This document shows, in pieces, positions 45,410 to 49,051 of a DNA stretch of 64,000 bases. The first letter of the stretch is position 1. Every line of letters begins with the position of its first letter. This DNA comes from a virus (Duplodnaviria; Caudoviricetes). The notes under the pieces were generated by a model. It did not search any database. It was not told the origin of the DNA and saw nothing but the letters and a program-made list of their open reading frames with translations. Made by a program: the position numbers and the translations under genes. Where the stretch lies: the IMG/VR virus record IMGVR_UViG_3300033066_000895, positions 5,260 to 69,259 of that record, one strand, 5' to 3'.

Positions 45410-48400
45410 CTAGTCATCCTTATGAGTGTACCCAATGTCTTCAAATACTTTATAGCATTTCGGGAACTGCCGACGCAATGCCGCTCTGCCATCCTTACCC
45501 TTCGAGTCCCACAGTACTGCTCTAGCGAATTCAGCGAATCCTTCCTGAGCACTTGAGGCGGCGTAAACGGTTAGAGAATCATTTTCCAGTTCTTCTTTCC
45601 ATGCTGTTTGCCATTCTTTACGATGACTGATTCTCTTCAGTACTGGGTCATCTTTTGTCTGGGAAAATGGATCGATGACATGTCCGATTTCATGAGCATA
45701 AATTGCTTCCGTTGTGCAATCGCTCCCATCACCATCAAGATGCAGTGATCCTTTACGTACACCTTCAAGCGGAGCACTTGCCCATCCAGCAATGCTACTG
45801 ACTCTTCTAAACTGAGGGTGACGCCTATGACATGCATGTGTTAAATCCCGTACACTCGGGAAGAATTCACAGCTACCTAGATTTTTATCAAGGCATTCTT
45901 TAACGGCATCGGGCATCTGTTCAAATACATTATTCCATGCCTTTTTATACCGCTCGATTTTATGCATATCAACAGGAGCGACTTCAACGTGATCATGGAA
46001 CAACTTGTTAGCGACATCCCCCGGTTTCTTTTCGGTAGACTTTGGGACATCAGACTCTTCTCGTTTAGCAGGTCTGGTCATGCTGCTAGAAGCTGACGAC
46101 TTCTTTTCCTTTGGTGTTTCTTTTTCCTCTTTTGGTTTCTCTTCTTTTGACTTTTCTTCCCTGATCTTCTTTTCTGGTTTCTTCGGTTCAGCTTCCTTTT
46201 TCTTAGGGGCTGACTTCTTAGACTTCTTGTTACTCTCTAAAGTCTTCTTGACCATATCTGCCATTGATCCGGCATTGATGGTCCCTTTACCGTCCGTGAA
46301 CTGACCGCCCTTACTGACCTTACCGGACTTGTTGGTATGAGTTGCACCACCCTGAACTCGTTCATGAGACATCTGCTCAACATCATCGGCAGACATTTGT
46401 TTGGTTTTTAAGCTATCAACAGCTTTATCCCCCACATAAGCCTTAATCGTTTTTTGACCCTTAGCTAAAGCTGCTGCATGTCTATGTTTTCCGTCAAGGA
46501 TTATATGATCAGGAGGAGCACCAAATGCACTGTGCAGTCTTCCCATTCCACCGGGATTGATATCGACAATGATAGGACCATCAGAATGAGACTCAGCCCC
46601 TTCTTGTACTTTGCCTAGCGGGAACACTGAATCTATAGGAATGTCCATCAGATGGAATGTTTTGCTTTTAACAAATCTATCTTGTAGGAATTCCTTCTCG
46701 TGTCGGTAATGGGTGGACTCCTTAATACGTTGTTGAATTTCTTTTTTGGTAAGACTTTTGTTTTCGTTGATTTCATCAACAACGGTTTGTCTAGCTATTT
46801 TATGGTTATGTTGATCTTCCAGCAGTTTTCCTACATCGTCTGCTGTTATTGACTTAACCCATTTTCCGTCTTTACCTCTTGGATGTTCTGATTCTTTCTC
46901 GGGTTTCTTTTCTGATTTTTCTTTAGTTTTACTTTCTGGTTTTTTCTCGGAAGTAGGTTTCTTCTTCGATGTTTTCTTAACAGGCTTCTTCAATGTCGCT
47001 CGAACCATACTTCCCATCGAACTGGCAGCATTGGTTCCATCACCATCTGTAAACTGACCACCCTTACTGACCTTACCGGACTTGTTGGTATGTGTTGCTC
47101 CTGATTGGACACGATCATGAGACATCTGAATATCTTCAGTCGACATCTGCTTAGGAATAGACTTAGCCCATGCGTTCGCTTTGCTCATCTCTTCAGTTGC
47201 GTCTGACAGTTCAGCTTTAGCTGAATCGACTAACTCTTGTATGTGCTTTTTCGTTTTAGCATTTTCTCCCTCAACATACTCACCCACTAAATTAAGGGCT
47301 TCTTTAATAGTAATTGATTTGTTTTGTAGTTTTATATACGCACCAGAAAACACTTCATATTTTTTAAGAGCATCTGAATGTTTTTGTGCAGTTGCTTTGA
47401 ACTTCTCGGCTGTCCATTCCACAGTCCATTTGCCCTCTTCATCGCGAGGTTCATTTGATACATCATGTGACATCTGCTTAGGCACTTTCTGCCCGTACTC
47501 ATTTGTACCTCGAATACGCCTAACCCGTTGCTTCTGGTATTCGACTTCTTTACGGATGACACTACGAATGTGCTTCGTGAAATGATGAATCAGAGGATGA
47601 ACTTTTGGTCTACTTAAAGTTGGGGCACTGTCCGACATCTGAACAGCATCAAAGTTCTTTCCGGTCAGATAGACGGTACCTCTCATGCCGATCGTCTTAG
47701 TGATGACTCGGCATTGAGGGGGAGCGTCATTGTAAGAGTCAGTCAGTGCGGAGTTGACGTTATCTACCTGAACGTTCCCGGTCGACATTTGCTTTGCTTG
47801 AGGTTCAAGCTGTTTACCAGCAGCTTTCATCTGATCGTTATCATCTTCACTGCTGTTAGCTTGTCCAGCGTCACCGACTTCACCAGCATTCATGACACCC
47901 ATCAATCGGTCGATATCAACGTCCATTGAGGCTTCGTAGTGATCATGTCCGAAACGAGTTTTACAGAGTGGTCTGAGGATTTGTTCGTCAATAACGTTGA
48001 ACATGTTATCTAATGCGGCTTCCTGAGAGATAAAGAAAGCCATCAAAGGAATTGTTCTGCCGGAGAAGGAACCAGCACTCCCCCCGTTACCTGTTGCCTG
48101 TTGTATCACATCATCAGGGATACCAAGTCCTCGAAGCATTTCGATATCAAGCTGATTGACGTAACCGACAAGTTCAGCACCACCGGGATTGACCTTTGGT
48201 TCAACCAGATTCCATTCCGGGTTGTTCTTCTCATCGAACTTGGATTCGAACGTCCAGACAGCACCATTTGAAGCAGTTTCGATTGCTTGACGTGCAATCG
48301 ATTCGTAAGGGATCAAGTCACCGGATTCAGTTCGGTAACTTCCGGGAGGATGGAAAAGGATACCACCATTGAATGCGTTCTTGAAGAACCAGAGTTTGCG

Positions 48401-49051
48401 GGCATGCTTTGCACCTTGCCAGTCATTTTTTTCTAGCCAAGGATCGTAAGAAGCTTCGAACTCTGATTGACCATAAAGAGAGTTGAACTCTCTTTTGTGG
48501 ATGTACAGAAACCCCTTCGGGAAATAGAGGTATTGTTTCTGCATATTGATTGCGTTGTCAGCAGATGAAGTACCAACTTGTTGACTAGAGATTCCCCCAG
48601 ACCATGAACAATCCTTGACAGAGATACCGATAGGTATCCCTCTACGAGACAGGATTGAACAGTCAGTAGGATAGAAATCTGTAAATGACCAGAATTCTGG
48701 GTAACCGTGTTGATCGTTTATTCGGTATCCAATTTCCCCACAACAGGTAGTATACCATAATGCATATTGAATCTTAGGAAGGGCACGCATCCAGACTCTA
48801 CGAATCTGGTTTCCCATGTACTCAACGACTTCAGGATCACCCTTCAAGGTACACTTGGTACGCTGATAGGGAGCAGTCTTGATTGACATCCCAAGCTTGA
48901 TTTGGCAGTCTCTCTTCATCCACTCTACTGTTTGTAGAGTGAATGGAGGAAGACCTTGCTGAAGAAATGTAGGTCTGTAGCCCATCGGGGGACGATAAGC
49001 AGCAGACCTTACTTGGAACATGTCTTGAGGACTGATATCGGCTACTGTCAT
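45410..49051 (-). CDS. Mu gp29/DUF935-like portal fused to helical, ParB-like and zincin metallopeptidase domains
   Basis: WMKRD.QIK, YGQSEF...Y..W.EK portal motifs; ILDGKHRH..A ParB-like motif; HEIGH...YA.....EGFAE zincin motif. Confidence 0.8.
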   Translation of the reverse strand: MTVADISPQDMFQVRSAAYRPPMGYRPTFLQQGLPPFTLQTVEWMKRDCQIKLGMSIKTAPYQRTKCTLKGDPEVVEYMGNQIRRVWMRALPKIQYALWYTTCCGEIGYRINDQHGYPEFWSFTDFYPTDCSILSRRGIPIGISVKDCSWSGGISSQQVGTSSADNAINMQKQYLYFPKGFLYIHKREFNSLYGQSEFEASYDPWLEKNDWQGAKHARKLWFFKNAFNGGILFHPPGSYRTESGDLIPYESIARQAIETASNGAVWTFESKFDEKNNPEWNLVEPKVNPGGAELVGYVNQLDIEMLRGLGIPDDVIQQATGNGGSAGSFSGRTIPLMAFFISQEAALDNMFNVIDEQILRPLCKTRFGHDHYEASMDVDIDRLMGVMNAGEVGDAGQANSSEDDNDQMKAAGKQLEPQAKQMSTGNVQVDNVNSALTDSYNDAPPQCRVITKTIGMRGTVYLTGKNFDAVQMSDSAPTLSRPKVHPLIHHFTKHIRSVIRKEVEYQKQRVRRIRGTNEYGQKVPKQMSHDVSNEPRDEEGKWTVEWTAEKFKATAQKHSDALKKYEVFSGAYIKLQNKSITIKEALNLVGEYVEGENAKTKKHIQELVDSAKAELSDATEEMSKANAWAKSIPKQMSTEDIQMSHDRVQSGATHTNKSGKVSKGGQFTDGDGTNAASSMGSMVRATLKKPVKKTSKKKPTSEKKPESKTKEKSEKKPEKESEHPRGKDGKWVKSITADDVGKLLEDQHNHKIARQTVVDEINENKSLTKKEIQQRIKESTHYRHEKEFLQDRFVKSKTFHLMDIPIDSVFPLGKVQEGAESHSDGPIIVDINPGGMGRLHSAFGAPPDHIILDGKHRHAAALAKGQKTIKAYVGDKAVDSLKTKQMSADDVEQMSHERVQGGATHTNKSGKVSKGGQFTDGKGTINAGSMADMVKKTLESNKKSKKSAPKKKEAEPKKPEKKIREEKSKEEKPKEEKETPKEKKSSASSSMTRPAKREESDVPKSTEKKPGDVANKLFHDHVEVAPVDMHKIERYKKAWNNVFEQMPDAVKECLDKNLGSCEFFPSVRDLTHACHRRHPQFRRVSSIAGWASAPLEGVRKGSLHLDGDGSDCTTEAIYAHEIGHVIDPFSQTKDDPVLKRISHRKEWQTAWKEELENDSLTVYAASSAQEGFAEFARAVLWDSKGKDGRAALRRQFPKCYKVFEDIGYTHKDD
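46298..47128. repeat. ~78-nt imperfect direct repeat (46298-46375 and 47051-47128) inside the portal fusion gene
   Basis: Shared core cccttactgaccttaccggacttgttggtatg; encodes QMSH[DE]RVQ[SG]GATHTNKSGKVSKGGQFTDG. Confidence 0.9.

Follow-up and report, generated by a model that had tools for sequence, protein, structure and literature searches.

A Mu-type phage portal protein with a C-terminal chain of candidate cargo modules ending in a lethal-factor-like zincin

Introduction

Proteins injected by phages along with their DNA are their first tools against host defenses, and in uncultured phages they are difficult to identify. The locus described here lies in a 64,000-nucleotide stretch of tailed-phage DNA, referred to below as the window, which comprises bases 5260-69259 of a linear IMG/VR virus record (IMGVR_UViG_3300033066_000895) that is 69,259 nucleotides in length and has a CheckV completeness of about 68%. 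Positions 45410-49051 of the window hold one uninterrupted open reading frame (ORF) of 1213 codons. A preliminary description of this DNA had read the product as a portal protein fused to a train of cargo domains. The length of the ORF was borne out, and its location on the minus strand, which the description did not give, is added here. The open frame spans 1218 amino acids and has no internal stop.

The reading preferred here, which is given a probability of roughly 0.7, is that the product is a portal-anchored polyvalent protein. It would consist of a portal and a chain of approximately 820 residues with three modules, one unassigned, one possibly ParB/Srx-like, and one an intact M34-type zincin. 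This cargo would be cut from the chain at Q-[M/L/F]-S sites during head maturation and ejected with the DNA.

Results

Portal Domain

The phage is very divergent. The whole 1213-residue protein had no match in Pfam or PHROGs, even at E ≤ 10, and none in a phmmer search of PDB sequences or a tblastn search of 50,697 phage genomes. For this reason, the identities of its parts were established indirectly.

Five proteins are 52-57% identical to residues 1 to approximately 390 only. Their C-terminal parts are unlike that of the 1213-residue protein and mostly unlike each other. A direct search of the query with the Portal_Mu hidden Markov model (HMM; PF06074) gave no match, and the single-protein portal query found nothing among viral and metagenome contigs. 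Another IMG/VR contig, labeled L002, encodes a stand-alone homolog of 392 residues that is 43% identical, and this homolog matches Portal_Mu with an E value of 1.8e-13 and 51 bits (cut-off 23.9). A search of 1.84 billion cluster representatives returned 962 relatives at E ≤ 1e-3. PF06074 is matched by 41 of 53 short relatives and by 61 of 90 long relatives. Run against PDB sequences, the family profile retrieved portals only (Sf14, Bas63, G20c, P23-45, and P74-26), with E values from 4e-6 to 5e-4.

The AlphaFold2 model of the N-terminal domain has a predicted local distance difference test (pLDDT) score of 88.8 and a predicted template modeling score of 0.81. Its best Foldseek match is 4zjn, the G20c portal (E 7.6e-12, template modeling score 0.60), and the top matches are all portals, including those of P74-26 and P23-45. 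A feature search of the ESM Atlas returned Portal_Mu with a score of 0.97. On the agreement of the homolog, the family profile, the model, and the Foldseek matches, residues 1-390 are a Mu/G20c-type portal domain, as the preliminary description had proposed. Its mention of DUF935 motifs is upheld through homologs, profile, and model, whereas direct Pfam and PHROGs scans were empty.

On L002 and on a further contig, L006, the portal gene is found in the same syntenic place, with a homolog of the 615-residue gene listed in Table 1 immediately downstream. From this shared position and the evidence above, the 1213-residue protein is the portal of the phage and not a decoy. The portal encoded at the L006 locus (9980-13360) has 634 residues, a short extension, and one QMS with a FDESKHPR...GQF tag, and the homolog of the 615-residue gene comes next. 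The 1213-residue protein is the sole portal candidate found on the contig, which carries the large terminase and head module and is about 68% complete.

C-Terminal Zincin

Residues 1011-1213 match the Pfam family ATLF (PF07737) with an E value of 1.1e-5 and 25.7 bits, below the curated cut-off of 27.4. At genome scale the match scores 24.8 bits with an E value of 5.2e-7 and is also under the cut-off, although both E values are significant. Comparison of a five-sequence zincin profile with the PDB gave matches to the catalytic domain of anthrax lethal factor (E 2.8e-8) and to Pro-Pro endopeptidases (approximately 2e-3). The HMMER alignment to the lethal factor chains spans the HExxH helix, the conserved Tyr, and the Glu-bearing helix in the spacing of the family. 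The MPTase-PolyVal model (PF18818) had no match on the contig at E ≤ 10. Four other portal fusions (P0034, P0042, P0104, and P0138) end in homologous zincins. Judged by these profiles and alignments, the C-terminal segment of approximately 200 residues is an intact lethal-factor/M34-type zincin, and the lethal-factor-like metallopeptidase of the preliminary description is thereby supported.

Variable Cargo Across the Portal Family

The family was sampled as the 152 nearest cluster representatives (50% identity), some of which may derive from incomplete gene calls. In this sample, 54 representatives are at most 520 residues long and 93 are at least 600 residues long, the longest having 3688 residues. 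The portal domain is N-terminal in all of the 150 matches listed. About 60% of the 152 bear different C-terminal cargo.

A Pfam scan of 90 long members identified ART-PolyVal (5), topoisomerase IB (Topoisom_I; 5), 2H phosphoesterase (4), ADPrib_exo_Tox (3), MuF (Phage_Mu_F; 3), PI3_PI4_kinase-like (3), Zeta_toxin (2), SNF2 helicase (2), and GGACT (2) domains. InPase, PBECR3, LPD1, LPD3, and GNAT were also found. Domains of this set are the hallmarks of the polyvalent proteins described in 2017 (PMC5512222). Together with the alignments, this census bears out the expectation that homologs would carry variable C-terminal cargo. The accompanying statement, that portals usually consist of one domain, does not hold in this clade, given the number of representatives of at least 600 residues. 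The closest homologs (P0002, P0003, P0004, and P0006) have the same portal and different cargo. That of P0002 contains a topoisomerase IB (PF01028, E 2.9e-12), and the other three have a common module of approximately 250 residues that is PD-(D/E)xK nuclease-like by eye.

A tree of 153 portal domains was constructed with FastTree, a quick method, and an extension was scored as present if it was at least 150 residues long. Extension presence changes state 42 times on the 153-tip tree, compared with 47.6 ± 2.9 times when labels are shuffled, which is a near-random scatter. Cargo has therefore been gained, lost, and swapped very often. In this one large Mu-type portal clade, the portal gene is a reliable site at which to find cargo, and that cargo changes almost from genome to genome.

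Junction Motifs

The 1213-residue protein contains seven QMS tripeptides (residues 421, 471, 526, 635, 642, 885, and 893), all confined to positions between modules. QMS sites are followed by four basic tags, PRDEEGKWT, KSGKVSKGGQFT (twice), and HPRGKDGKW, with the general form ...G-[KQ]-[FW]. All motifs quoted in the preliminary description were located in the protein, and their residues are given in Table 1. A 125-nucleotide direct repeat (46251-46375 and 47004-47128) with 79% DNA identity encodes both QMS...KSGKVSKGGQFTDG junctions (residues 635-682 and 885-933). This repeat indicates, from sequence comparison, that a junction cassette was duplicated within the gene long ago.

In the minus-strand ORFs of the window (15.5 thousand residues in all), approximately 1.2 occurrences of QMS would be expected by chance. 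All copies there lie in the 1213-residue protein or in a 472-residue ORF at 58451-59869. The 472-residue ORF has two QMS and two QFS. Its position, and the usual protease-scaffold arrangement of phage head genes, make it a putative maturation protease and scaffold. A search for further homologs of this scaffold-type protein recovered only one, on L002. That homolog keeps a QFS at the aligned site and has another just past the conserved N-terminal block.

Motif counts for 96 long family members, taken over their C-terminal extensions, were compared with those in shuffled sequences. Q[MFL]S was observed 106 times (20 in shuffled sequences), QMS 51 times (3.8), and GGQF 24 times (0.9). The pattern G[KRQE][FW] lies within 32 residues after Q[MFL]S in 37 of 108 cases, compared with 6.3 ± 2.3 in block shuffles. 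The median position of the first Q[MFL]S site is 420, shortly after the end of the portal domain. In many relatives, both elements are merged into a unit of approximately 20 residues, [Q/R]-[M/L/F]-S-F-D-E-S-K-H-P-R-x(2-8)-G-x-F. Internal start codons were considered as an explanation of QMS and were ruled out by the presence of QLS or QFS at the same places in relatives.

The combination of Q[MLF]S with HPR/G-x-F is not mentioned in the 2017 account of polyvalent proteins (PMC5512222), and a text search of the literature for the KHPR motif returned nothing relevant. It is tentatively suggested, at somewhat short of even odds, that Q-[M/L/F]-S and the tag of about 20 residues, (F-D-E-S-K)-H-P-R-x(2-8)-G-x-[F/W], make up a polyprotein grammar that is general among tailed phages and undescribed. 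Such a grammar would pair a lineage-specific cut site for the head protease with a universal cargo tag. Any enzyme could then be attached to the portal, freed inside the head in 12 copies, and sorted for ejection, and scaffold removal would be timed by that same cut site.

ParB/Srx-Like Module

Residues 732-884 have the pattern IPIDSVFP ... PIIVD ... ILDGKHRHAAALAKG ... TIKAYV. The motif ILDGKHRHAAA, which contains DGxHR, is present. Against PHROGs, this segment matched phrog_17560 (E 7e-4) and, weakly, 33277, a "ParB-like partition protein" (E 0.021 over 34 residues). A single homolog was found (P0160, 55% identical). An AlphaFold2 model built from the two sequences shows a strand-strand-strand-helix-strand order, which would fit the ParB/Srx fold, at a low pLDDT of 52.5.

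No match to residues 732-884 was obtained with ParB_N (PF02195) or ddrB-ParB (PF18763) at E ≤ 10, or with NCBIfam. The two-sequence profile had no match in the PDB, and the ParB-like piece found nothing among viral and metagenome contigs. Foldseek with the low-scoring model returned nothing at E ≤ 0.001, and VIA-align matched the N-terminal helix only. The segment has no similarity to the 212-residue ORF of the window at 12938-13576. The ParB/Srx identity named in the preliminary description is thus plausible but unproven on sequence and model. The motif is there, with the weak "ParB-like" PHROG match, whereas the ParB_N and ddrB-ParB models are empty and the structural model is of low confidence.

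Features of the Locus and Gene Neighborhood

The features of the ORF and its neighbors are collected in Table 1. Residues 391-525 had no family match. For residues 544-634, which the preliminary description had read as a helical domain, family scans gave no match and no relatives were found.

Table 1. Features of the 1213-residue protein and of surrounding genes. Residues are those of the protein, and coordinates are window positions unless marked otherwise.
Feature	Residues	Coordinates	Strand	Remarks
Whole ORF, portal and cargo chain (P0001)	1-1213	45410-49051	minus	1213 residues
Portal domain, Mu/G20c-type	1-390	47882-49051	minus	By homologs, family profile, AlphaFold2 model, Foldseek
Junction region without assigned fold	391-525	47477-47881	minus	Specific to this protein; QMS at 421 and 471
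Junction 1	526-543	47423-47476	minus	QMS, then tag PRDEEGKWT
Cargo module 1, fold unassigned	544-634	47150-47422	minus
Junction 2	635-668	47048-47149	minus	Two QMS, then tag KSGKVSKGGQFT; within 125-nucleotide internal duplication
Lys/Pro-rich linker	681-731	46859-47011	minus	Closes with tag HPRGKDGKW
Cargo module 2, ParB/Srx-like by motif only	732-884	46400-46858	minus	IPIDSVFP, PIIVD, ILDGKHRHAAALAKG, TIKAYV
Junction 3	885-919	46295-46399	minus	Two QMS, then KSGKVSKGGQFT; second copy of duplicated junction
Lys/Glu-rich low-complexity linker	940-1010	46022-46234	minus
Cargo module 3, ATLF/M34-type zincin metallopeptidase	1011-1213	45413-46021	minus
PRDEEGKWT	535-543
KGGQFT	662-668 and 913-919
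HPRGKDGKW	723-731
PIIVD...ILDGKHRHAAA...IKAYV	826-874
HEIGH	1120-1124	45680-45694
YAASSAQEGFAEF	1163-1175
472-residue ORF		58451-59869	minus	Opens head operon (start approximately 59,900), directly upstream of decoration and major capsid genes; putative maturation protease and scaffold
Lambda-D-like decoration protein (HDPD), lambda-E-like major capsid protein (Phage_cap_E), Mu gp36-like protein			minus	In this order after 472-residue ORF
Several small ORFs			minus	After Mu gp36-like gene
572-residue ORF		51694-53412	minus	Long Gly-rich run, then hydrophobic membrane-like segment
687-residue ORF, then 131-residue ORF			minus	Between 572-residue gene and 1213-residue gene; no function assigned
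41-residue ORF		45282-45407	minus	Starts 3 nucleotides past stop of portal-cargo gene, directly downstream of zincin module
615-residue ORF		43384-45231	minus	After 41-residue ORF; ends in poly-Ser and Cys-rich modules
Large terminase (Terminase_6N and Terminase_6C)		contig 3578-5137, outside window	minus	Approximately 45 kb from portal gene

The portal gene is placed after the capsid and tail-like genes and not before them, which is unusual among Mu-type head modules. The 572-residue protein has a weak PHROG match to tape-measure proteins (E 0.047) and may be a tape-measure or ejection protein, judging by that match. A layout in which the 572- and 687-residue ORFs are terminase and portal, and the 1213-residue protein is MuF-like, was considered and rejected. 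The 572-residue protein is Gly-rich and hydrophobic with a weak tape-measure match, the large terminase is encoded elsewhere, and the N-terminus of the 1213-residue protein folds as a portal in its model. A tblastn search of 50,697 phage genomes with both upstream neighbors of the portal-cargo gene gave no match.

The 41-residue ORF is extremely acidic, and its Asp and Glu residues are concentrated in the C-terminal half. Its product could be a protease inhibitor or chaperone, or a DNA mimic. The 615-residue protein is probably a tail or fiber protein. The gene following the portal is conserved in the window, in L002 (10180-12201), and in L006 (11957-13360), and the copies have a common N-terminal block around L.LVE.AD.R.

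The MuF HMMs (PF04233 and PF06152) have no match in the 1213-residue protein or anywhere on the contig. The earlier statement that no separate MuF gene is evident in the window accordingly extends to the entire contig for these two models.

The phage is environmental and possibly infects a planctomycete. A weak hint to the host group is that L006 (JADZEF010000231.1) is a contig binned to a Planctomycetaceae metagenome-assembled genome.

Discussion

Proposed Mechanism

By analogy with solved portals, the C-terminus of the portal domain would face the capsid interior. Because a portal is a dodecamer, a C-terminal fusion would place twelve copies of each module in every head, and neither an addressing system nor a separate MuF adaptor would be needed. 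In front of each module lies a Q-M-S site, after which comes a small basic tag of the form ...G-[K/Q]-[F/W]. The chain would be cut at Q-[M/L/F]-S during head maturation, probably by the head maturation protease, whose scaffold-type protein has the same sites, and the zincin of the chain may add to the cutting. Head maturation in phage Mu includes a trimming of the portal at its C-terminus. Once freed, the modules would accompany the DNA out by way of the portal and tail channel and could act early in infection, for example in counter-defense, DNA handling, or proteolysis of host proteins.

Several points weigh against this mechanism. For the 1213-residue protein and its close relatives, cleavage and ejection are inferred. 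Q[MLF]S is often just the first three residues of the tag of approximately 20 residues, which may be a binding or sorting peptide instead of a cut site. The protease identity of the 472-residue protein had no support from Pfam, PHROGs, NCBIfam, a PDB sequence search, or PF10123. With a contig of about 68% completeness, a second portal beyond it is conceivable. Finally, twelve tethered 90-kDa chains might work uncut.

Alternative Explanations

The chain could instead be processed by its own C-terminal M34-type zincin. Acting in cis or in trans within the dodecamer, this domain would cleave either at the QMS sites or in the Lys/Pro-rich linkers, whose basic, Pro-rich composition resembles the substrate preferences of M34 peptidases. 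Every catalytic position of the zincin is aligned with lethal factor, and a zincin is found at the extreme C-terminus in five family members. Autoprocessing by such domains was proposed by Iyer et al., as for the metallopeptidase of phage P1 DdrB (PMC5512222). Most members rich in Q[MLF]S and tags lack any HExxH, however (for example, P0005, P0023, and P0037), and the same sites are also present in the scaffold-type protein. A shared, separately encoded enzyme fits these observations better, and processing by the zincin is held to be unlikely.

Another possibility is that the extension is not injected. It would remain covalently joined to the portal and work within the capsid, for example as an internal core or an organizer of the DNA end or DNA spool. 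Long C-terminal barrels in contact with the DNA are present in some portals, for instance in that of P22. A structural role of this kind would suit a ParB-like DNA-binding module, and cleavage of the chain is a predicted step. The same place in relatives, however, holds ADP-ribosyltransferases, Zeta toxin, 2H, kinases, and topoisomerase IB, which are sensible only in the host cytoplasm. The near-random scatter of extensions on the tree is also unlike that of an essential structural part. A purely structural role is considered quite improbable.

An artifact of assembly, already raised in the preliminary description as a chimera, or of a sequencing error joining a portal gene to a downstream polyvalent gene, could be imagined from the single metagenomic contig and from the stand-alone portal of the more distant relative L002, but it is effectively excluded by the 1218 codons without a stop, by the same portal-first fusion in over 90 independent cluster representatives drawn from other datasets, by the four other fusions ending in the same zincin, by the divergence of the internal repeat to 79% identity, and by a base composition that is continuous along the gene.

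Comparison with Known Systems

The internal proteins IPI-III and Alt of phage T4 are separate capsid-targeted cargo with an N-terminal targeting peptide. After loading into the prohead they are cut by the prohead protease gp21 at a short motif also present in scaffold proteins and are ejected with the DNA, and the scheme proposed here would be the same in outline. The portal-cargo protein differs in that its modules are translated as one chain with the portal, that its motif is Q-[M/L/F]-S, and that its cleavage is a predicted one.

The C-terminal module shares with anthrax lethal factor and the Pro-Pro endopeptidases (M34) the HExxH helix, the conserved Tyr, and the Glu-containing helix of the profile match. 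Unlike lethal factor, it has only the catalytic core of approximately 110 residues and none of the other toxin domains, it scores 1.7 bits under the Pfam cut-off, and it occurs in the context of a phage head protein.

MuF fusions (Mu gp30 and SPP1 gp7) are similar in having a variable C-terminal effector on a conserved, head-internal, portal-associated anchor. MuF-anchored toxins are encoded beside portal genes, and gp7 is present at 1-2 copies (Jamet et al. 2017, PMC5576092). In the protein described here, the anchor is the portal itself, which would be present in 12 copies. No MuF domain was detected on the contig, and three of the 90 long relatives contain one.

Polyvalent proteins were defined in 2017. 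PBECR, 2H, and InPase domains were then described as fused to MuF or portal domains, for example in the InPase-portal gp124 of Burkholderia phage BcepF1, and the published portal fusions are the simplest polyvalent architectures (PMC5512222). The same study linked the peptidases of polyvalent proteins to lethal factor by HHpred. It also described P1 DdrB as having a ParB domain and a C-terminal metallopeptidase, with a processed form in the head. The novelty implied by the preliminary description does not hold, since both effector-portal fusions and the ParB/metallopeptidase pairing of DdrB were already reported there. DdrB resembles the present protein in the order of a ParB-type module and a C-terminal zincin, although the ParB relationship is unconfirmed here, the ddrB-ParB Pfam model having no match. 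DdrB is a free protein, whereas here the chain is fused to the portal.

What remains of value is mainly the junction motifs, with the intact M34-type protease as a test case. The motifs give a simple rule for where modules start and where they are probably cut. This rule can aid the annotation of thousands of "hypothetical" extensions, and it helps in choosing domains for biochemistry, such as the protease.

In common with polyvalent proteins (PMC5512222), the 1213-residue protein is a virion protein of a terminase-portal phage with several unrelated domains, including a zincin. Its portal and zincin are established, and its two further modules are unassigned. Its relatives carry ART-PolyVal, InPase, PBECR, 2H, LPD1/LPD3, and SNF2 domains with rapid turnover, and the fate proposed for it, packaging and injection, would be the same. 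It differs in that the portal bears three modules, with up to 3.3 kb of cargo in relatives, and in that its zincin is of the ATLF/M34 type and not MPTase-PolyVal. The protein is thus a portal-anchored polyvalent protein of the kind described in 2017 (PMC5512222), and it is a clear multi-module example of a known design.

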